IMG/VR virus record: IMGVR_UViG_2563366802_000013
Span: 1 to 44,878 of that record
Reading direction: 5' to 3' (one strand)
Origin: a virus
Lineage: Duplodnaviria > Heunggongvirae > Uroviricota > Caudoviricetes
Length of the DNA stretch: 44,878 nucleotides
Positions within the stretch are counted from its first letter, which is position 1. Each line of letters opens with the position of its first letter. This document shows, piece by piece, positions 9,116 to 29,994 of this stretch. The position numbers were made by a program, and so were the translations under genes. The notes under the pieces were generated by a model that saw only the letters and a list, made by a program, of their open reading frames with translations, did no database searches and was not told the origin of the DNA.

Positions 9116-9586
9116 TCACAGATACTGAAGCCCTGTATATTCGCGGGGGTCGTATAATTTTCCGATGTTGTTGTTCAGCGGGTTAGTGACGGACAGAGTG
9201 ACCGACGCGGAGTCAGCGTCGATGTCGACCGTTTTGACGTAGAGCTGCCAGGACTTAATCGGTACCGAAACGTCGCCGCTGTCGAAGATCTGCCGGGTCG
9301 CCGTGATAGCCGTCAGCCTAGCAGCCCCCTTCCACTGTTTCATTAGCGCTTTGATGTCCGACGACAGCCGGCCTAACTTCACCGTCGCGTCGATCACCGG
9401 CGTGCCGCTCTGCTGACTCTCTTCGATTTCAAAGCGCGCTGGCGTGTACGTCTGGCCGCCTAGCGTCTTCGCAAAGAACTGCTTGTCGACCAGGCGGACA
9501 TAGCCAAAGGATGGATGGTAGAACGTGATGGTATCGTACAGACCGCGCGTCGGGCGCTGCTGCTTATAAGCTCTGAAGGTAGGCAT
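9116..9586 (-). CDS. Minor tail protein (lambda L-like position)
   Basis: 156 aa; position between M-like and K-like genes; tight spacing. Confidence 0.5.
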   Translation of the reverse strand: MPTFRAYKQQRPTRGLYDTITFYHPSFGYVRLVDKQFFAKTLGGQTYTPARFEIEESQQSGTPVIDATVKLGRLSSDIKALMKQWKGAARLTAITATRQIFDSGDVSVPIKSWQLYVKTVDIDADSASVTLSVTNPLNNNIGKLYDPREYTGLQYL

Positions 9587-10083
9587 TACGGCACTCTCGG
9601 TAAAGATTCCGGGTCGCGCCCGTCAGGATAACCAGTGACAACGATATCCAGCCACGAATCCCACGGTGGCGGCAGTTCAACAATGATATCGTCGAACTCG
9701 TCGTCGGCGTTGTAAAGGTGGTTCGCGATAACCGTCCCTGTCCAGGTCACCACCCCGCCGTCGATACTGGTTTGCACCGGCATCTGCGTGAAGTGGAGCT
9801 CCTGTAGCTGCAATCCACTGCCGCCAAGATTGATATTCATCCGAAACCAGTTCAGACCACGGTTGAGATAGTTAGGGCTGCGCAGCCACTGCTGAAATGC
9901 GCGCTCCTGCGCCAGAGTGAAGATCCATGTCAGTGACCAGGTCACCTTCAGGTCGTCGGTTTGATTCTCGAAGATAGCCGGGCCGACCGCTGGCTGATCG
10001 GTCTGGAACCCGGTATCGAGCGTCATGTTTTTGCTGGCCTTCTGCGCCAGCGGCAGCCAGTCGGGATAGTCGATAATTGGCAT
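9586..10083 (-). CDS. Minor tail protein (lambda M-like position)
   Basis: 165 aa; start overlaps the tape-measure stop; position immediately after TMP. Confidence 0.5.
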   Translation of the reverse strand: MPIIDYPDWLPLAQKASKNMTLDTGFQTDQPAVGPAIFENQTDDLKVTWSLTWIFTLAQERAFQQWLRSPNYLNRGLNWFRMNINLGGSGLQLQELHFTQMPVQTSIDGGVVTWTGTVIANHLYNADDEFDDIIVELPPPWDSWLDIVVTGYPDGRDPESLPRVP

Positions 10084-12590
10084 CAGCCCTGCCCCCTTGG
10101 CGTGCGTTTAACGTTCATGTTGCTGGTAATGGCGTTGCTTGCCGGGCCGCCGTTATTCATGTCAGCGATGAATGCCTCAAGCGTCCATGAACCATCACCG
10201 TTCTGTGTAGCCTGAGCATCTACAGAGGCGGATGAGTAGTTGTAGATGTTGAGAATCGGAGCGCCGCCACCTCCACCCGAAGCCATGTCCTTATTGCTGA
10301 TCACCCTGCCGTTGTCGCCCGGTATCATGTACTGCTTACCGGTACTGGCCTGGTAAATCTCCGGCTTCCCTCGCTCACCGACCTGATAAAGACCTCCTGC
10401 ATTCACCGGGCCGCCATTGTAACGCATACCGGTTAAAGCAAGGCCCTGTGCCAGGCCTACCGTTGAAGCAATTCCTGTCATGGCAGGAACTGAGTTGGCC
10501 CCAAATGAAGCGAGGCTCGCCATGGCGGCGGCAGGAGCCCAAGCTGTAGCCAAGATTGCAGCCTGAGATGCTCCAGCAGCAGTAGCTGCTGCGCCCAATG
10601 TCTGCCCGATAATGAAGTTTTTGAGAGCCTCAACCCCAACCTGGACTAGCGCATTTACCACGCTATTCAGCATCGTGTTACCGAGTGAGCGCATAGCATC
10701 CTGCGCTGACATCGTTCCGGTGATCAGCCCGGTTAACGCATTGGATGCATTGCCTGAAAACGCATCTACTGCACTTGTCAGCATTTCATAACCAAGACCT
10801 TGCTGGCTGAGCAATTGCCACTGAGCGGCTGTCATCTGCTCATTGAACTGGTTTTCCTGCGCAGTCTTTAAGGCAAGGTACTGGGCATCGGTAGCTGCCT
10901 TTGCAGCAACGAACTGATCGTAATTTATTTTCCCTTTTTGGTAACTTTGCTGGAGTATCGCCTGTTCCTGCTGCTGATATTGCTGCATCAGGGCTAACTT
11001 CTGGTTATTTTCGTTCACCAGTTGCTGTACCGGGTCAACTTCGGCTCGGGCAGAAGCTACCGGATTGACTGTGGCCTGGGCGTTAATCTTGGCGAGGTTA
11101 TTCTGGTGCTCGAGCGCCATTTTCTCCGTGGCAGCGTTATACTCCTTGAGATCTATTTTCCCAGCGTTCAGTGCGGCCTTCAGATTTTGCATGGATTCTG
11201 CGTAGGATTTATTCTCCGCCTGCAAAGGCATTGCCTTAAGTGCTTCAGTTACCCCTCTGGCTGCCGCTGCTGCATCCCATGCTTTGGCGGCGTATTCTCC
11301 AGCCTCTTTAATCTGTGCTTGAGTTGCAGCGCTACCGAGTGACTGCTGAGCATTCAGAACAGCTTGCGCACGAGACAACTCACCCAAGCTTCCTGCGGAA
11401 AGTTGCGCCTTCTGTCTAAGCTCTTCCAGCTTTTCGTTAACTGTCTGCTGCGCCTTAGCATATTTTTCTGCTTCCTTTTCGGCCTGAGTCTTTTTCTTTT
11501 TGCCTGTACCAGCAACAGCCTTTATCTCGATCGGCTTTGTGTTTGCCGCGGTCTGTGATGCTTTGGAAACAGCGGCCAGGTCGCCAACCAGCATGGCGGC
11601 TTTATTGCTTAGCCCGGCCAGCGCTTTGTTTTGCGCCTCCCAGCCATCAAGCCCAAGCCATGACCAGGTTCGCGCCCGGCGGGTAAACATCTCTGCTGTG
11701 CTGTTCAGTTCTGAAATCTGCGCATCCGCTGAGATTGCCTTCCCCACCAGCCTGTCGAGAGCGGCCGTCATCGAGTCGATAACCGCAACCAGTCCTGTGC
11801 TTGCGCCTGTCGCCTGGTTAACAGAGTCAATCATCGACAGGAATGAGTTTGTCAGCGCGGTATTGGCTTGAGCCAGAGTACGAGGAAGTTTTTCGAACTC
11901 TGCATTTACTGAGCTGGTTTGTTTCTGGATGGCATTAAGCGCATCTTCTGCTGTCAGTTTCCCGTCCAACATCAGTTGACGCAGTTCGCCGATACTTACG
12001 CCCATCCCGGCGGCGATCTGCCGCGCCAGTTCAGGCATTTGCTCAAGGATGGAGTTGAACTCCTCCGCCCGGACAGTGCCGGAGGAAATTGACTGGCCGA
12101 ACTGACGAAGAGCATTCGCCATTTCTTCGGAAGAGGATCCGCCAATGCGACCTATTTTCTGAAGTGTTTCGGTGAGCTGGATGATCTGGCCGTTCGTCGC
12201 GCCGGTATCGCGCAACGCCGTGCTGAGAGTCTCCCACAGCTTCGCTGTATCCTGTAGCGAACCACCCGTTGCCGAACTGATGCGCATCAGACTCTGCATA
12301 GTCTGCGAGGCTGCCCCTGCGCTACCAGTGAGCCTCTCTATACGCGCGTTGAGCTGGCTCATGTTGTCAGCAGCAACGAGAAACGCCTTACCCCAGTCAA
12401 CTACGAGTGAGGCGGCAATTGCCCCGGCGACGCGGTTGATGTTCGTCTGCAACTCATCCATCTTTTTGGCTGCATTGGTCGCCGAGTTGCCGATGGAGTC
12501 GAGCGACTTATTGGCCTTTCCCTGGGCCTTGAGCAAGCCAGATACATCGGCCTCGATGTCGTAATAAATCTCGCCTGCTTTCTCAGACAT
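10083..12590 (-). CDS. Tail tape measure protein
   Basis: 835 aa; Ala/Gln/Leu-rich coiled-coil composition with Gly-rich C-terminal region; ATG with GGAG SD; canonical position. Confidence 0.9.
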   Translation of the reverse strand: MSEKAGEIYYDIEADVSGLLKAQGKANKSLDSIGNSATNAAKKMDELQTNINRVAGAIAASLVVDWGKAFLVAADNMSQLNARIERLTGSAGAASQTMQSLMRISSATGGSLQDTAKLWETLSTALRDTGATNGQIIQLTETLQKIGRIGGSSSEEMANALRQFGQSISSGTVRAEEFNSILEQMPELARQIAAGMGVSIGELRQLMLDGKLTAEDALNAIQKQTSSVNAEFEKLPRTLAQANTALTNSFLSMIDSVNQATGASTGLVAVIDSMTAALDRLVGKAISADAQISELNSTAEMFTRRARTWSWLGLDGWEAQNKALAGLSNKAAMLVGDLAAVSKASQTAANTKPIEIKAVAGTGKKKKTQAEKEAEKYAKAQQTVNEKLEELRQKAQLSAGSLGELSRAQAVLNAQQSLGSAATQAQIKEAGEYAAKAWDAAAAARGVTEALKAMPLQAENKSYAESMQNLKAALNAGKIDLKEYNAATEKMALEHQNNLAKINAQATVNPVASARAEVDPVQQLVNENNQKLALMQQYQQQEQAILQQSYQKGKINYDQFVAAKAATDAQYLALKTAQENQFNEQMTAAQWQLLSQQGLGYEMLTSAVDAFSGNASNALTGLITGTMSAQDAMRSLGNTMLNSVVNALVQVGVEALKNFIIGQTLGAAATAAGASQAAILATAWAPAAAMASLASFGANSVPAMTGIASTVGLAQGLALTGMRYNGGPVNAGGLYQVGERGKPEIYQASTGKQYMIPGDNGRVISNKDMASGGGGGAPILNIYNYSSASVDAQATQNGDGSWTLEAFIADMNNGGPASNAITSNMNVKRTPRGQG

Positions 12591-22046: not shown

Positions 22047-23525
22047 TTAGCGAAGGCGTTTCGGAATCATCATCCCCACAGGTTGCGATCCATTCAGTTC
22101 AGTCAGTGCGTAAACCATTGCATCGAGGCGGTCAGGTGATTTCTTAGCGGTGGCGGGGATGTATTCCATCAGCTGGTTCTCCAACACGTAGAGATTGCCG
22201 TGATTTGCCACTCTCCCCTGTTCGTAGAGCGCCGATATCGGCTCCGCGCGGGCATACTTACCTTTGCTGGCATGGACACGAATGATGCGACCTTTGAACC
22301 CGGCGTTGCGGAGTGTCTCCTCCGCCATATCTCCGCCCTGGTTCGTCTCAATAACTATCGCGTCAGCTTCGTGTTGCTCATAAGCCGATATGGCTTTCTT
22401 GGCCCATCCAGCTGGTGAATATTTTCCGCTGTAATCGCCATCCACAGAGAACTGCTTTTTGTCACCGGCACCATATGAGCTGGCAGCGACAATGCCTGTT
22501 TCATCGCTTTCGTCGCTATTTGTTGCCTGTGGGTCAATCGCCACGACAGTGCGAACCTTATCGTGATGAATTTGCAGCTCGCGTGCCGCGCTGATCATAA
22601 CTTCTGTCCACAGGGCTCCTTCAGCATTAAATCTGCGAGGCTTCTGCATATACTGCGCTTCGGCAGTGCGCCTGTGAGAGAACAGAGATAAGCGATGCGA
22701 CTCGTTGTGCTTGAAAGGCCACAGCCAGCCATCAGGCAGGCCATGGTCAATCGGTATTGCGTGGGAGTTCTCAGGGTACTGCGCAGCGTATGGTTGGCTA
22801 TTGTCGATAATCACCGGCAGGTTCAGGTGATGCCATTTCTCACCACTCCCGCCCCGCAGAAGATAGCCGCTCAGGTCGTGGTAGTGGATCCGCTGCATGA
22901 TGACAATCATCGGCGTCGTCTCGATCGCCAGTCGTGATTTAATTGTCTCGTTAAAGCGATTGTTGACGCCGTCGCGGACGATCTCCGAATAAGCGTCGTC
23001 CGGCTTAACCGGGTCATCGATAATCAGCGCGCCCTGCCAGCCCGGTTCCATGTGTCCGGCACGAAAGCCGGTAACCTGTCCCGCAGCTGACGAAGCATAA
23101 ACGCCGCCGCCGTGCTCGGTCCACCACATCGCCTTACTGTCAGCGTCATCGCGTAGCGACATCGGCCACATCGACTGATAGGCCTGCGACTTAATCATGC
23201 CGCGTGCGGTGGAGGAGTTCAGCAGCGCCAGATTGTGCGAATAGGACAGGTGCATGAATCGGGCCCGGCAGTTCAGCGCCAGCCCGCGCCCCATCATGTT
23301 GATGGTCGCCAGCTCCGTTTTTGTGTACCCAGGCGGGACGTTGATGATTAGGCGCTGAATCTCACCATCAATGACGCGGTCCAGCGTCTGCTGAATAACC
23401 TTGTGGTGGGGAGCGACAATCATCTTTCCGCCGGTGCGCTGCTTAAAGAAGTATCGCGCGTAGTAGAGCCCGTCCTCTTCGCATTCAACCTTACGGGCAA
23501 ATGCCCTTTGCTCAGCAGTCGTCAT
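22047..23525 (-). CDS. Terminase large subunit
   Basis: 492 aa; N-terminal ATPase region and C-terminal nuclease region with acidic residues; start overlaps TerS stop. Confidence 0.9.
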   Translation of the reverse strand: MTTAEQRAFARKVECEEDGLYYARYFFKQRTGGKMIVAPHHKVIQQTLDRVIDGEIQRLIINVPPGYTKTELATINMMGRGLALNCRARFMHLSYSHNLALLNSSTARGMIKSQAYQSMWPMSLRDDADSKAMWWTEHGGGVYASSAAGQVTGFRAGHMEPGWQGALIIDDPVKPDDAYSEIVRDGVNNRFNETIKSRLAIETTPMIVIMQRIHYHDLSGYLLRGGSGEKWHHLNLPVIIDNSQPYAAQYPENSHAIPIDHGLPDGWLWPFKHNESHRLSLFSHRRTAEAQYMQKPRRFNAEGALWTEVMISAARELQIHHDKVRTVVAIDPQATNSDESDETGIVAASSYGAGDKKQFSVDGDYSGKYSPAGWAKKAISAYEQHEADAIVIETNQGGDMAEETLRNAGFKGRIIRVHASKGKYARAEPISALYEQGRVANHGNLYVLENQLMEYIPATAKKSPDRLDAMVYALTELNGSQPVGMMIPKRLR

Positions 23526-23991
23526 CCTCCATCATCTCCTGCCGTGCGGATTTGTATTCCTCTTTGCTCATGGTGATCGTCTGGATGGCGCCACCATTAG
23601 GGCCGGAATGTTCAAATTTGTGCTTATTGGTGTAGGCATCTCCGCATTCCTTCGCCGCCTGCTCAATTATCTCGGCAGTAAGTGCGAGGTTCTTCATGCC
23701 CTCGGCACGCGTTGCCATTCGGTCGAGAACGCGCAACCGGTACGCTTTGTTCGCGATCGGTATGTCGGCGATCTCATTCTGGAATCGTTTACGGGTGGCG
23801 TTGAACAGGTCAATCCACTTCTGGCTCAACTTGGCCGCCATTGCATTGCCTGGCGTATATTGCGACACCTGCTGCCGTGAGACATCGATGCCGTATTCAG
23901 CCTTTACAAGCTCAATGACTTTTACCGGGGTCTCGTAGCAGGCGAGTGATTGAACGATGAAGGCTTTAACCTCTGTCGATAATGCTGCCAC
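23512..23991 (-). CDS. Terminase small subunit (HTH-containing)
   Basis: Probable GTG start at about 23991 preceded by GGAGGTG SD (track ORF extends to a TTG at 24009); N-terminal HTH-like segment; overlaps TerL start. Confidence 0.65.
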   Translation of the reverse strand: MAALSTEVKAFIVQSLACYETPVKVIELVKAEYGIDVSRQQVSQYTPGNAMAAKLSQKWIDLFNATRKRFQNEIADIPIANKAYRLRVLDRMATRAEGMKNLALTAEIIEQAAKECGDAYTNKHKFEHSGPNGGAIQTITMSKEEYKSARQEMMEDDDC

Positions 23992-24022
23992 AGGCCACCT
24001 CCATGACAATCTGAATAAAGCG

Positions 24023-24661
24023 TTACGCCAGCTTCAACATGCACGTCCCGCATGACCTGGCTATATCGATGTGAGCCACTTCTGCTGGCGCATTGGCCGC
24101 ATCAACGAGCTCCTGTACTTCTTTGCTGGCACCGTATCGCCGTACGACACCAGTGAATTCTTCGACGTCGTGGCCGCGCAGTGTAAGCACTGGCTTCCCG
24201 GTCTCTTTGTTGAACTTCGGCGCGCCGAAATCATCTGTGGCCTGGGCGATGTGGTAAAGCTCATGCTCTACCAGTGCGCAGAATTCAAGGTCGCTACACT
24301 GTGAACAGTAATCGGCCGCCAGCGTGATGATGAACTTCGGTATGCGTCCGAACCATTCATGCATCTGCTGTTCCATTCTGGCTTTCTGCCAACCGCCGGC
24401 GCGAAGCATTACCTGTTCGGCCTGACCGAGAACATAGCGCCCCTTCTTCGCGAAAGAGTCAGACGCCCACATGAAGCAGAGGTCAGCTTCAAGAAGGTGT
24501 TCATGGTCTGGGTTATGGATGCTGCCGGTATCGCTGAGGATTTGGCGGTTTATCCACTCACGCACTTCGTTGGCGGGAATGAGCCGGGTGTATGGCTGCC
24601 AGTTCTCGGAGGCGATGAAGTTAACTGGCGGATAAGGCCTGCGCTCGTCATCGTTAGCCAT
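24023..24661 (-). CDS. HExxH motif protein (putative zinc metallopeptidase-like), function unknown
   Basis: 212 aa; HELYH motif in ...CALVEHELYHIAQ...; ATG start; between Rha and TerS. Confidence 0.6.
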   Translation of the reverse strand: MANDDERRPYPPVNFIASENWQPYTRLIPANEVREWINRQILSDTGSIHNPDHEHLLEADLCFMWASDSFAKKGRYVLGQAEQVMLRAGGWQKARMEQQMHEWFGRIPKFIITLAADYCSQCSDLEFCALVEHELYHIAQATDDFGAPKFNKETGKPVLTLRGHDVEEFTGVVRRYGASKEVQELVDAANAPAEVAHIDIARSCGTCMLKLA

Positions 24662-25026: not shown

Positions 25027-25551
25027 TCAGCCAATCAACAATTCTGGCTGCGTCACCTGCATGATGTGCTCATGCTCAACGGCCAGAACGCGCTTTTCCT
25101 TCTTGCGTTCGTTCATCAATCTGCTGCCGATCGTGCCTTTCAGCTTCGAACGCGTTTCTTTGATGGCGTAGCGGTGCTGCATTTCTTCGCCCATCGCCAG
25201 ACGTCTGCTAAGTTGTTCGGCCATCCAGTTAAATGCGGCGATGTATTGCTCTTTAATAGCGGTAGCTACTTTCCCGGTAAATCCCATTACCAGCATCATC
25301 CACCCGTCTTTTGTGATGTTGTACATCAGACGCATTTCGCCTTTTTTATCGAGATATTCAACGGGCTCAAAATTGAGCCGGTTAAAATCAGGCGAGCAAT
25401 CAACCTCCAGCCGCTTGATAGCACGCAGAACGTTTTTATGCGCCTTGCCGAAATAGCTGGCGATCTTCATAGAAGTGGTGATGACCTTCCCGTTACATGG
25501 CATGACCATTTCGCGGAAGTCGAAGGCTGGAATAACTGACGGATTATTCAT
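25027..25551 (-). CDS. rha: Phage regulatory protein Rha
   Basis: N-terminal domain ...GKVITTSMKIASYFGKAHKNVLRAIKRLEVD matches the Rha/ORF6 N-terminal family; probable ATG at about 25551. Confidence 0.7.
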   Translation of the reverse strand: MNNPSVIPAFDFREMVMPCNGKVITTSMKIASYFGKAHKNVLRAIKRLEVDCSPDFNRLNFEPVEYLDKKGEMRLMYNITKDGWMMLVMGFTGKVATAIKEQYIAAFNWMAEQLSRRLAMGEEMQHRYAIKETRSKLKGTIGSRLMNERKKEKRVLAVEHEHIMQVTQPELLIG

Positions 25552-25696
25552 AGCGTCTTTACCTTTTAGAAAGATGAGCCTGTTCGCACAGAAAAGCCGC
25601 CCCGAGATGGTCGCCACCATATACGGCAGTTCTCAGGCTCAGCTTTCTGAAAGACTCGGGATTGTTATGCGCTGCGATGCGCGGTTTACTGCGGGC

Positions 25697-26656: not shown

Positions 26657-26932
26657 CTACTCCGTTATAACGACCTTCGCCAGGTTCCCGCGAGCCAGCC
26701 ACACCGCCATGCAGATGACGGAGTTAAGCAGCAGGTCGCCGAGGTTAACCTGTACGTAGTGGCCGAGCAGAATGTTGAAGGCATTGAATCCGGCGGCAAG
26801 GATGACCAGATAGGCCAGCACCGCGACACTAAGGCGATGACGCTTTCCCTCTTTCCGGAAAAACATCAGCCTGACCATGATTAACAGGCAAACTATGGCG
26901 TTTGCATCCATCAGAAGAAGCTGCCATGTCAT
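26657..26932 (-). CDS. Holin-like membrane protein (second holin or antiholin)
   Basis: 91 aa with two hydrophobic segments; immediately upstream of the endolysin. Confidence 0.6.
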   Translation of the reverse strand: MTWQLLLMDANAIVCLLIMVRLMFFRKEGKRHRLSVAVLAYLVILAAGFNAFNILLGHYVQVNLGDLLLNSVICMAVWLARGNLAKVVITE

Positions 26933-27330
26933 TTATCTTCCTCCCCCAGCCCTGGCATCTTCCCGCTTTTGGATTTGCGGAGAATACGCAGCAGGACTGC
27001 CACGGAAATGGAAGCAGTGACAATTGCACCTACAGCTGGCGATACCTCAATGCTGGCCGGTGGCTTCATCAGGCTTAACGGCGTGTTGATGATTCCGGCC
27101 ATGATTTTCGCCATGGGAACGGAGAAGAACACGCCACTGATAAACGATATCAGCGCAAAGATAGCCTGCTTCCAGAGTTGATGGGGATCTGAGGTCAGAA
27201 CGTATAGCGCCGTTCCGGCGAGTGATCCGAGCATCACTGCTGGAGTCGCCTCCGGAAACAGCGTGGCAAAGGTTACACCGACTGATGACGATGCAAGACC
27301 AACGCCTACGATAGTGAAGGTCTCAGACAT
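26929..27330 (-). CDS. Holin
   Basis: About 133 aa from internal ATG near 27330 (MSETFTIVGVGLA...); three hydrophobic segments and a charged C-terminus; first gene of the lysis cassette. Confidence 0.6.
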   Translation of the reverse strand: MSETFTIVGVGLASSSVGVTFATLFPEATPAVMLGSLAGTALYVLTSDPHQLWKQAIFALISFISGVFFSVPMAKIMAGIINTPLSLMKPPASIEVSPAVGAIVTASISVAVLLRILRKSKSGKMPGLGEEDK

Positions 27331-27510
27331 ATTTATTCCGTGTGTAGTTGGTTCAGGCCCTCGGGACGATTTAACAAGAAGGCATGTCGAGGGTGGTTCC
27401 CGGGGCCTGGAATAAAAAACCTGGCGACAAGCCAGGAAGATGAGGGTAAGGCAATGTCGGCTCTCTGGCCGAAGGGTCCCAGGTAGTGGGTTCTGTGTGC
27501 GGCGTACCGC

Positions 27511-27543
27511 AAATAAAAAAGCCCCGCACGATGGCGAGGCTTG
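27511..27543 (-). terminator. Candidate tR'-like terminator in the late leader downstream of Q
   Basis: Minus-strand hairpin AGCCUCGC-caucgu-GCGGGGCU (one G-U pair) followed by U6AUUU; lies between Q and the holin gene. Confidence 0.45.
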
Positions 27544-27602
27544 GCATTCATTCATGTCACACACAACAACGGCAACATATACGATTTATTCTGCTCATTT
27601 GT

Positions 27603-28103
27603 TCATTGAAAAGCAAGCGCGTTATGAGGATTTTTTGCAATTTTCCTCATATTTTCGCGATTGTTAAACGCATTTTGCAGCGGTTGGTACAAACAGAACA
27701 GTGAGGCATTGATGATTTGCTTCACCTCTCTACGGATTGTCGAGATGCTTGGGTGTTTATACTGATTTCCGCCACGCGTCTTCATCAGGCGAGGCTTACT
27801 TACTGCATGCTGCCATGATGCAATTCGGATCTCGCTGGAGTTACAAACGTAGTAGGCGAAGACAACCCGCCAGGCATTTTCATCCACATTCTTCAGATAG
27901 TGACGAATTACAGCATCAATGAGCATCCCGTCATCATCACTACATACCGGTCGTGATGCTTGCTGGGGCTCGACGGTAGCCATGAATCTGGCAATCATGT
28001 TGATCATCGCTTTATCAATCTTGCCGGTCTGGCACCATGCGCCCCACAACTGGAGCCACTGGTCTACCCATTGATGCTGGTCTTTGGTTAATTCCAGTTT
28101 CAT
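27603..28103 (-). CDS. Q: Late-gene antitermination protein Q (phage 21/82-type family)
   Basis: 166 aa; motifs WLQLWGAWC and RPVCSDDDGMLID...FAYYV match the Q antiterminator family as I recall it; positioned immediately upstream of the lysis genes. Confidence 0.8.
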   Translation of the reverse strand: MKLELTKDQHQWVDQWLQLWGAWCQTGKIDKAMINMIARFMATVEPQQASRPVCSDDDGMLIDAVIRHYLKNVDENAWRVVFAYYVCNSSEIRIASWQHAVSKPRLMKTRGGNQYKHPSISTIRREVKQIINASLFCLYQPLQNAFNNRENMRKIAKNPHNALAFQ

Positions 28104-28215: not shown

Positions 28216-28575
28216 TCACGGCGCGCACTCCCCAATAATGATCTGCCCCTTCTCTCCCCAAAGTTTTGTCACCCGACCATCCCAGACGCGGCTGTCGTCG
28301 TCGAAAATTGCATCGAGTAGCGCCTTTTCCAGGTTGTCTTTATCCGGTTTCTGCTGATGAGCCTGGCCGTTAAGTTGCGCGCGCTTCTTCTGGCTCCAGC
28401 TTTTTGGCATGGGAATGATGAAGGTGACGTGATAACCGGACTCAGGCAGACAGATCCCGAGCTGGCGTACTTCGGCTTTAAAAGCCCAATATGCCGCTGT
28501 TGCCGGACGTTTTACCCACCGGTCCCGTTGAGTCATGCGGGGTTTGCTGACTGGCGTGATATCGAAAATATTCAT
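28216..28575 (-). CDS. rusA: Holliday junction resolvase RusA-like
   Basis: Probable start at internal MNIF (about 28575); motif KPDKDNLEKALLDAIFDDD resembles the RusA acidic catalytic block; ATGA overlap with the upstream gene. Confidence 0.65.
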   Translation of the reverse strand: MNIFDITPVSKPRMTQRDRWVKRPATAAYWAFKAEVRQLGICLPESGYHVTFIIPMPKSWSQKKRAQLNGQAHQQKPDKDNLEKALLDAIFDDDSRVWDGRVTKLWGEKGQIIIGECAP

Positions 28576-28862
28576 ATTTTCACGAGCCCCTCTCTCAGCC
28601 AGATGACCTGCGTGCGAGCCATGCCTTCCAGCGCGCACTCCTTTGCATATTCCGCATCGACCAGACGGGTGCGGCGATCAATCTCGTCGTGGCAGCTGCT
28701 GCATGCGATGGTGGCAATCAGGTCAGGCGGCTTGATCCCGGTGCCGCACAGGCCGGCCAGGCGGATATGTGCCAGCACTGAGGTTTCAGAATTTCCATTG
28801 CAAACGCCAGGGATACGCACCTGGCATTCGCGGCCGCGCGCGGCTTTGCATAAATTAGCCAT
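28572..28862 (-). CDS. Cys-rich nin-region protein (DUF1364-like zinc-binding)
   Basis: 96 aa; CQVRIPGVCNG...SSCHDEID cysteine pattern; typical nin-region neighbour of RusA. Confidence 0.55.
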   Translation of the reverse strand: MANLCKAARGRECQVRIPGVCNGNSETSVLAHIRLAGLCGTGIKPPDLIATIACSSCHDEIDRRTRLVDAEYAKECALEGMARTQVIWLREGLVKI

Positions 28863-29025
28863 GCGTTCTCCGTGCCGCGAGACGCAGCCATTTCTGATCC
28901 ACCAGGCGGGCGGTGTACCCCTTCAGGGTCGGGATGTCGGACGGATTAACCGCAGGCTTACGCTGGCGGCGCGCCGGAACGCGGAATATTTCGTTTGTGA
29001 TTACGCGGGAAAGTGGAGTAGACAT
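28855..29025 (-). CDS. Hypothetical 56-aa basic protein
   Basis: Below the track's 60-aa cutoff; ATG with AGGAGG SD; TGATG overlap with the HNH stop; stop overlaps the DUF1364 start. Confidence 0.35.
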   Translation of the reverse strand: MSTPLSRVITNEIFRVPARRQRKPAVNPSDIPTLKGYTARLVDQKWLRLAARRTHG

Positions 29026-29546
29026 CAGGCCTCCTGCTTATCGCGCAGCTGCTGGTAGCAATGACTATTGGGCAGTCCGTGATTGACATGGTAACCATGC
29101 TCAGCCTTTGCCTTGTCGCGAGCTTGCTTTGCTTCTTCCATGCTCTCGTAAACACCCACGAACTTTCTTTTTCCGTCGGCGTTGATCTGGACATGCCACT
29201 TGCTTAGTTTTTTATTCCAATGGATACCAATCTCACCTGATGTATTGGTGCTGGGTAGCGATTTGTTACGGGTATTATCCGACTGGCTTATCAGCCTAAG
29301 GTTTTCAATCCGATTGTCTGCTCGGACGTGATTTATGTGGTCAACCTCCATTCCTTCCGGAATTGGGCCGTTTATCATTTCCCATACAATTCTATGCGCC
29401 AGGTATTGACAGCCAGAGTATTCAAACCTTCTGTAGCCATCGCTAAGACATCCTGCAACGTCACCAATTTTTACCCTGTTAGCTGGCTTTATGGCCCACA
29501 CAAGATTTCCATCAACAATGGAAAATATATCGCTCCAGTTATGCAT
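29025..29546 (-). CDS. HNH homing endonuclease with AP2-like domain (second copy)
   Basis: 173 aa; HNH core MEVDHINHVRADNRIENLRLIS; paralogous to ORF 8641-9108 (shared YLAHRI...E.NGPIP block). Confidence 0.8.
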   Translation of the reverse strand: MHNWSDIFSIVDGNLVWAIKPANRVKIGDVAGCLSDGYRRFEYSGCQYLAHRIVWEMINGPIPEGMEVDHINHVRADNRIENLRLISQSDNTRNKSLPSTNTSGEIGIHWNKKLSKWHVQINADGKRKFVGVYESMEEAKQARDKAKAEHGYHVNHGLPNSHCYQQLRDKQEA

Positions 29547-29994
29547 CTTGGGCCTCCCTCAATTTCTGGTATTGGGAGTCGGAAGGGATGGTCAGGTGAC
29601 AGCCGATGTTCATCGCCCAGGCTTCGACTTTGCACAGGAAGATGTACATCTCGCCGGTTTCCAGATCAGACGTATGGCGGAGTGATTGAACCGTGGTTAC
29701 CTCGCCGGACACGACGTCTACACGGTCTTTGCTTTCGTAGCCGAGATAGGTGTGCTTCATCGCGTCTTTAACCCACTCAGGCGTAGCGAATGTTTTGCCG
29801 CGGGCGATGAGGTACTCGCTGATTTCCGTGTACCACATGTGGCTGAGCGCGTTCTGCGACAGGCTGCGCTTCTCGCGCCACGGCTTAACCTGAAGGCGGA
29901 AGCATTGCCCGGCATCCAGCAATGGCTGAATCTGCTGGCCGATGGCCGCGAAGTTACCGCGATGGAGTTTGATGCCGTCTACTGGCAGAGTCAT
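29539..29994 (-). CDS. ninB: NinB-like recombination protein
   Basis: 151 aa; block RSLSQNALSHMWYTEIS resembles the lambda NinB RSLDQNRKLW region as I recall it. Confidence 0.7.
   Translation of the reverse strand: MTLPVDGIKLHRGNFAAIGQQIQPLLDAGQCFRLQVKPWREKRSLSQNALSHMWYTEISEYLIARGKTFATPEWVKDAMKHTYLGYESKDRVDVVSGEVTTVQSLRHTSDLETGEMYIFLCKVEAWAMNIGCHLTIPSDSQYQKLREAQDA

Follow-up and report, generated by a model that had tools for sequence, protein, structure and literature searches.

Two putative HNH-AP2 homing endonuclease genes of separate, site-specific lineages in the nin region and tail cluster of a lambdoid phage

The window analyzed here is the whole 44,878-nucleotide (nt) stretch of IMG/VR record IMGVR_UViG_2563366802_000013, a temperate lambdoid phage of mosaic build and of the Enterobacter/Citrobacter type, with kin in Cobrasixvirus, phi80 and HK639; among sequenced phages, Enterobacter phage CobraSix is the closest to it (86-94% identity over 36-44% of each window half). 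Two free-standing genes of the HNH_3 plus AP2 type are encoded in it, both on the minus strand: an intact ATG-to-TGA open reading frame (ORF) for 173 amino acids (aa) at 29025-29546 in the nin region, between ninB and ninE, and a 155-aa gene at 8641-9108, which in the tail cluster separates a 156-aa minor tail gene from one of the NlpC/P60 family. The preliminary description of this DNA had placed an HNH gene in the nin region, and the 173-aa ORF lies at exactly the coordinates given there; the blocks that it listed as shared with a second HNH protein (YLAHRI, E, GPIP, DHI and ENLRL) are present in both proteins. The paralog that it had reported in the tail cluster was recovered by tblastn of the nin protein against the window, as a match at 8647-9105 (minus strand) with 41% identity and 55% positives over 157 aa (E 2e-29), and the same search for a third copy in the window gave nothing further below E 0.4. 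The protein alignment spans the whole protein and not the HNH motif alone: it takes in the N-terminal hairpin region (NWSD..F...DG.L.W) and the HNN nuclease core as well as the AP2 region. As DNA, the two genes are similar over only about 114 nt around the catalytic motif.

Both proteins are members of the HNH_3 family (PF13392), matching it with 78 bits for the nin protein (E 4e-22, residues 48-93) and 79.5 bits for the tail protein (E 1e-22), against a cut-off of 24.8. In an alignment of 31 sequences including the two window proteins, D69, H70, N82 and N94 are invariant and N78 is nearly so, and all the invariant residues of the family (D-H...N...N) are kept in the nin and tail copies, the catalytic residues being intact in both. 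Because a sequence search of the PDB gave marginal matches only (E 0.078 and 0.1), a structure model and a fold search were used. The AlphaFold2 model, built for the nin protein as the sole copy modeled, has a predicted local distance difference test (pLDDT) score of 80.6 overall and of 85-95 over residues 1-90, and the top PDB match found by Foldseek for its nuclease part was I-HmuI (1u3e, probability 1.00), in agreement with a beta-beta-alpha-metal fold like that of I-HmuI. For residues ~105-150, the matches were plant and apicomplexan AP2 domains, namely AtERF1 (1gcc, probability 1.00, TMt 0.62), the TEM1 AP2 domain (7et5/7et4, probability 0.97-0.99) and PfAP2 (3igm). This part of the model has the AP2/ERF fold of a three-stranded sheet (strands 108-111, 116-123 and 126-133) packed on a C-terminal helix (136-150), and some homologs of the HNH proteins carry a precomputed PF00847 match.

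The composition of both HNH genes is foreign: the guanine-cytosine content is 46% in the nin HNH gene versus 56-60% in the adjoining genes, and 44% in the tail HNH gene versus 57% in its flanks, the window as a whole having 52.6%. Both genes are under purifying selection, with ratios of nonsynonymous to synonymous substitution rates (dN/dS) of 0.08-0.19 for the nin gene against four other carriers (L143, L144, L145 and L004) and 0.06 for the tail gene against the carrier L133; these closer pairs were taken because synonymous sites are saturated between distant clade members, which gave no estimate. Carriers that share only 85-95% identity in the ninB and ninE DNA on either side have nin HNH genes with 98.5% identity, which is the signature expected of an element moving between diverged backgrounds.

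The nin copy is embedded tightly between its two neighbors. On its upstream side lies ninB (29539-29994, minus strand), encoding the NinB/Orf recombination mediator, for which the Pfam NinB match (E 8e-5) falls just under the cut-off and whose product shares 93-99% identity with NinB from prophages of Enterobacter and Citrobacter; on the other side is ninE (28855-29025, minus strand; Pfam NinE E 4e-5). The HNH start codon overlaps the ninB stop by 8 nt (ATGCATAA), and the HNH stop overlaps the ninE start codon (TGATG). In alleles without the HNH gene, here called empty, ninB ends in ...IPQSCEYQQLRDKQEA and a stop, encoded by TACCAGCAGCTGCGCGATAAGCAGGAGGCCTGATG, of which the final ATG is the ninE start, and the ninB/ninE junction reads ...GAGTACCAGCAGCTGCGCGATAAGCAGGAGGCCTGATG... 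In the window, the last 45 nt of ninB (29539-29583, minus strand) are a recoded replacement 3' end (SDSQYQKLREAQDA followed by a stop) that is part of the mobile cassette; the DNA ends in ...TACCAGAAATTGAGGGAGGCCCAAGATGCATAA and includes the translation signals of the HNH gene, namely its ribosome-binding site (GAGGGAGG) and its ATG. Identity to the empty alleles is 51-60% over these 45 nt, compared with 90-95% over the first 411 nt of ninB, and identity to the other HNH carriers is 100%. Among the IMG/VR ninB loci, the recoded end is linked to the HNH gene without exception, being present in 3/3 carriers and in 0/77 non-carriers.

The original 3' end of ninB has been left behind on the far side of the insertion. 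At 29025-29057 (minus strand), the sequence TACCAG CAGCTGCGCGATAAGCAGGAGGCC TGA codes for YQQLRDKQEA and a stop, and the HNH ORF, which has no stop of its own, reads in frame into it, giving a protein that ends in ...NHGLPNSHC-YQQLRDKQEA. The remnant is nucleotide-identical to the ninB end of the CobraSix empty allele, matches most of the empty alleles and still provides the ninE ribosome-binding site. Two related proteins of 158 aa (P0004 and P0005) have their own stop right after the NHG motif, and there the in-frame remnant (KLKDKQNQ or KLKDKQNE, followed by a stop) mirrors the local ninB end, while the C-terminal tails of two others, P0002 (YQQLQQKQEA) and P0003 (HQLRDNQGA), resemble the natural ninB alleles L044 and L032, respectively; residues 153-173 of the window protein have pLDDT values below 50 and are predicted to be disordered. 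From the remnants of the relatives, the allele-like tails and the predicted disorder, the C-terminal tail of the nin HNH protein is read as leftover ninB sequence. The insertion amounts to 514 nt net, with a TACCAG repeat marking its bounds.

In the tail cluster, the upstream 156-aa minor tail gene (9116-9586, minus strand) has a weak DUF1833 match and a CobraSix counterpart annotated as 'minor tail protein', and the downstream gene (8247-8639, minus strand) is a lambda K-like minor tail gene of the NlpC/P60 family (Pfam NLPC_P60 E 2e-7). The tail HNH gene is separated from the stop of the former by 7 nt and from a new ATG of the latter by 1 nt. This new start codon is supplied by a recoded 5' end of the NlpC/P60 gene of about 96-98 nt (8542-8639, minus strand), which is linked to this HNH lineage: in comparisons with alleles that lack the lineage, identity is 54-59% over the first ~96 nt of the NlpC/P60 gene, versus 87-93% over the next 290 nt, and the recoded end is 97-100% identical to that of the carriers L064 and L133. 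In empty alleles of the CobraSix type, the NlpC/P60 start lies within the end of the upstream gene (MTQRNTLAFSTSDF...). In L133 (IMG/VR contig 2830791761_000004, HNH protein P0076), this orphaned NlpC/P60 start, MTQRNTLAFS, is fused in frame to the HNH ORF (MTQRNTLAFSICEVD-MNWSD...), giving a 170-aa protein; the equivalent region of the window is 9106-9150, where TAC stands in place of that ATG. The N-terminal fusion of L133 is the mirror image of the C-terminal fusion at the nin site.

The homologs of each copy are tied to a junction of their own. A search of a large database with the nin protein returned identities of 98% (Enterobacter asburiae), 85%, 73%, 64% and 61%, followed by a plateau at about 50%, and the homologs with 61-98% identity follow ninB with the same 8-nt ATGnnTAA overlap in every context that was recovered, the next gene being ninE (L004-L008), ninG (L009) or unrelated small genes (L010-L012). 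The series for the tail protein comprised 100% and 94% (Citrobacter/Enterobacterales), 77% (Salmonella), 69% and 64% (Serratia), 63% (Klebsiella) and 59% (Providencia), and the three contexts recovered (P0077, P0079 and P0081, from Citrobacter, Serratia and Klebsiella) all place the gene between the 156-aa gene and the NlpC/P60 gene. CobraSix, like most related phages, has neither HNH gene; there ninB abuts ninE with an ATGA-type overlap and the minor tail gene overlaps the NlpC/P60 gene. In the annotation of HK639, ninB and ninE are adjacent too.

Both genes are polymorphic in presence and absence among close relatives, as counted over the best 80 loci of each scan. An HNH gene directly follows ninB in 3 of the 80 IMG/VR loci with NinB at least 93% identical (about 4%) and in none of the 35 species-representative ninB loci; a distant locus of Pantoea stewartii (L060) has a weak, partial HNH-like match about 200 nt 3' of ninB. 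Of 76 usable IMG/VR loci with the 156-aa protein at least 96% identical, 63 have an empty tail junction and 13 contain an HNH gene, which belongs to the same lineage as the window copy in two (95-100% identity) and to a different HNH_3 lineage in the other 11 (47-49%). Different lineages of homing endonuclease genes (HEGs) compete for one tail junction. The other-lineage genes (L063, L071, L077, L080, L088, L094, L095, L103, L106, L118 and L123) are at the junction equivalent to window positions 8640-9115.

Further HNH genes were seen around these sites. In a related Enterobacter prophage on a Logan contig (SRR23237994, L005), the order ninB, HNH gene, ninE is accompanied by a second, different HNH_3/AP2 gene between ninE and ninG (1606-2073, plus strand; 155 aa, ~40% identical to the window nin copy), which indicates that the nin region is a multi-site HEG hotspot. 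In Enterobacter phage BHUENT6 (PV874196, L024), the junction of the 156-aa and NlpC/P60 genes is empty, and a third kind of HNH_3-like gene (741-1268, minus strand; 175 aa, ~30% identical) is located between the NlpC/P60 gene and the large tail protein gene. Two other empty tail junctions (L066 and L067) have a 9-nt spacer, TAAGGCACGCGCATGA, from the stop of the 156-aa gene to the NlpC/P60 ATG, which resembles the 3' end of the HNH gene in L063 and L071 (AAGGCACGGAACATGA, the conserved R-H-G C-terminus plus the overlapping ATG); this spacer may be the footprint of HEG loss rather than a site that was never occupied.

The family to which both proteins belong is large. The nin protein has matches in 3,761 of 50,697 phage records, at 6,119 places, and the tail protein in 2,246 phage records, the best homologs of the window copies in this phage database being only 46-53% identical. 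Siphophage genomes of 45-50 kb often have 3-6 copies, for example six in Escherichia phage DTL and five in Salmonella phage LPSTLL. A class of free-standing HNH(HNN)-AP2 homing endonucleases was reportedly described by Magnani and colleagues in 2004. The Xanthomonas phages Xp10, OP1 and Xop411, of about 44 kb, were reported in 2007 to contain 7, 6 and 8 free-standing HNH genes, respectively, among them HNN-AP2 copies that are dispersed and have no conserved flanks, with T1, Rtp, T5, RB16 and RB43 as further multi-copy cases (PMC2248197), and Barth et al. (2023) described, across phage lineages, HNH-AP2 HEGs as well as 'HEG islands' (PMC10448857). For phages, two copies of the family in 45 kb are therefore ordinary, and the view of the preliminary description that this is uncommon enough to note is not supported. 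Like the phage HNN-AP2 genes already described (Xp10/OP1/Xop411 group I, PMC2248197; 'IPA-HNH' of ICP1, PMC10448857; T1, T5, Rtp and Jersey-like phages), the window copies encode proteins of ~155-175 aa with the same N-terminal, I-HmuI-like HNN motif (DH...DNR...NLR...N) followed by AP2. They also share with them the location between conserved genes, the occurrence as several diverged copies, the variable presence in close relatives and the lack of shared flanks; unlike them, the window copies reside in a temperate lambdoid phage/prophage, at two defined junctions. A literature search for ninB, HNH and homing returned nothing relevant to the nin site, and neither junction was found described there as a HEG site.

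By sequence (E 0.078) and by fold, the closest solved structure is that of I-HmuI from SPO1 (PDB 1U3E), with which the HNN-type active site and the N-terminal beta-hairpin region are in common. The identity is only ~23%, and the global template modeling score (TM-score) of 0.37 is low because the domain arrangement differs, I-HmuI being an intron-encoded nicking HNH enzyme whose C-terminal DNA-binding domain is a helix-turn-helix and not an AP2 domain. Intron-less homing by free-standing HEGs is known from T4, where SegF and SegG (GIY-YIG enzymes) and MobE (an HNH enzyme without AP2) cut the HEG-less allele, which is repaired from the HEG-bearing genome with co-conversion of flanking markers; for these, homing has been shown experimentally. 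As in T4, the window HEGs are located between genes, and the HEG-linked polymorphisms in the neighboring gene fit target-site immunity, homing being presumed here. Unlike the T4 cases, the window cassettes replace the terminal codons of the neighbor, and one HEG is fused to a leftover of its target gene.

Here it is proposed that the two proteins, which are probably both homing endonucleases, represent two independently acquired free-standing HEGs of the HNH_3 (HNN-type, I-HmuI-like) plus AP2 family, belonging to separate lineages with their own sites and moving by intron-less homing; this is considered likely. The nin HEG would insert into ninB about 10 codons short of its end, and the tail HEG where the 156-aa gene meets the NlpC/P60 gene, among the earliest codons of the NlpC/P60 gene. 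In a co-infected cell, or in a lysogen that becomes infected, the HEG-less allele would be cut or nicked by the nuclease close to the junction, and repair from the HEG-bearing genome would copy in the HEG together with the adjacent sequence, including the recoded end of the neighbor. The recoded substitutes (14 codons at the end of ninB and ~32 at the start of the NlpC/P60 gene) would keep the neighbor intact, and that of ninB would also give the HEG its ribosome-binding site and start codon; most likely, the recoded ends destroy the recognition site and so confer self-immunity. The nin copy is transcribed as part of the delayed-early nin operon and the tail copy as part of the late operon; translation of each is coupled to that of its neighbors. 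In a more specific form, it is tentatively suggested, at somewhat less than even confidence, that both HEGs use a common strategy of 'terminal-codon replacement', in which insertion takes place about 10 codons inside the end of a conserved gene, a heavily recoded substitute terminus restores that gene and abolishes the recognition site, and the in-frame remnant can become fused to the nuclease, as with YQQLRDKQEA at the nin site and MTQRNTLAFS in P0076 of L133.

Several points weigh against this proposal or temper it. The AP2 matches of both proteins to PF00847 are below the gathering score of 33.3, with 17 bits (E 0.007, residues 105-147) for the nin protein and 18.5 bits for the tail protein, and the occupancy figures come from the top-ranking loci given above. 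The separation of the lineages was read in part from a quick neighbor-joining tree of ~150 columns without support values, and a very ancient common origin of both lineages inside a phage genome is possible, which would differ from the recent spread meant by the preliminary description. That the proteins act as nucleases, where exactly they would cut and that the recoded ends serve in immunity are inferred; these ends could instead be passive hitch-hikers, brought in from a diverged donor by co-conversion, with no part in immunity.

The preliminary description had interpreted the two genes as copies of one homing endonuclease family spread within this genome. The common family holds, and the domain architecture shared by the two proteins, their full-length similarity (41%, E 2e-29) and the 114-nt stretch of similar DNA would suit a gene that was duplicated or transposed to a second site in this phage and then diverged, but such copying within the genome is very improbable given the closer relatives found elsewhere. 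Among 31 other family members, 19 are closer to the nin copy than the tail copy is (the tail copy having rank 20) and 20 are closer to the tail copy than the nin copy is (rank 21), so that 19-20 of the 31 sampled members rank above the other copy of the window. With 41-42% identity between them, the two copies fall, in the neighbor-joining tree of 33 family members, in two separate site-tied clades with many phage proteins in between, and each lineage occurs alone at its own site in many other genomes. The flanking DNA, in which shared insertion-site motifs had been proposed as a check, has no sequence in common, nor do the target sites: in Smith-Waterman comparisons, the upstream flanks, downstream flanks and empty CobraSix sites all score within the distributions of shuffled sequences. 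CobraSix, the closest sequenced phage, lacks both genes, and the two were not found together on another IMG/VR contig, the nin gene being found on three contigs and the tail gene on two by exact pattern plus L133, which was detected by 95% protein identity in the tail-junction scan (for the nin gene, an exact 47-nt pattern matched nothing, owing to single-nucleotide polymorphisms, and a conserved 54-nt pattern gave the three contigs). The two copies are thus distant relatives within one large family, each acquired on its own together with its module.

A domesticated accessory function without homing, such as marker exclusion directed at co-infecting relatives, degradation of DNA from the host, satellites or competitors, or sequence-specific DNA binding through AP2, would account for the strong purifying selection (dN/dS 0.06-0.19) and for the translational coupling inside a delayed-early (nin) and a late (tail) operon, and the co-option of HEG DNA-binding domains is known from the literature (PMC10448857). 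It is nevertheless unlikely, because closely related modules have the genes in no more than ~4% (nin) and 3-17% (tail junction) of cases, so that they are dispensable, and because HNH genes that are more conserved than their flanks, at an identical insertion point in diverged backgrounds, indicate ongoing mobility; marker exclusion, moreover, belongs to HEG biology and is no true alternative. HNH proteins of siphophages are sometimes essential packaging factors, which would speak for a terminase helper like gp74 of HK97, acting in cos cleavage. For the genes of the window such a role is scarcely credible: neither adjoins the terminase genes, both belong to the HNH_3 plus AP2 family and not to the gp74 type of HNH (PF01844 E 0.087), and most relatives with the same packaging and tail modules have neither gene. 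Independent acquisition of two site-specific HEGs thus remains the preferred reading.

The remainder of the window is that of a mosaic lambdoid phage, with other pieces in common with phi80, HK639, ES18 and Klebsiella phages. Upstream of the 156-aa gene in the tail cluster are a 165-aa gene (9586-10083, minus strand) and the tape-measure protein gene (10083-12590, minus strand), and downstream of the NlpC/P60 gene is the gene for an 824-aa tail protein (5786-8260, minus strand). The terminase region comprises TerL (22047-23525) and a DUF2280 small-subunit-like gene (23512-24009), and a phage metallopeptidase gene (24023-24661) and a Rha-family regulator gene (25027-25620) are found between the lysis and terminase genes. 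A terminase-associated role of an HNH protein was rejected, the genes near the terminase being those for the DUF2280 protein, the metallopeptidase and the Rha protein and not HNH genes. The lysis region includes two adjacent holin-family genes at 26657-27564 (minus strand), Phage_holin_8 (211 aa) and Phage_holin_3_7 (91 aa), preceding lysozyme and Rz. Beyond ninE, the window has genes for a YbcO-family nuclease (28572-28862), RusA (28216-28638) and a PF06530-type antiterminator Q (27603-28103), all on the minus strand, whereas CobraSix and several HNH carriers (L004, L006) have NinG, YlcG and a PF06323-type Q in this position. The unit of HNH gene and ninE is thus joined to alternative nin/Q modules, placing a mosaic boundary directly beside the nin HEG.

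The presence of two family members in one genome does not imply spread within that genome, and in this respect the significance of the pair is limited. The two loci do provide precisely bounded natural HEG cassettes together with their empty alleles, from which testable target-site predictions can be made for uncharacterized HNH-AP2 nucleases, the second predicted target site being the 5' end of the NlpC/P60 tail gene. If the recoded ends are immunity determinants, both target sites would be readable directly from the empty alleles. The two cassettes also illustrate the part that HEGs play in the mosaic boundaries of lambdoid phages.

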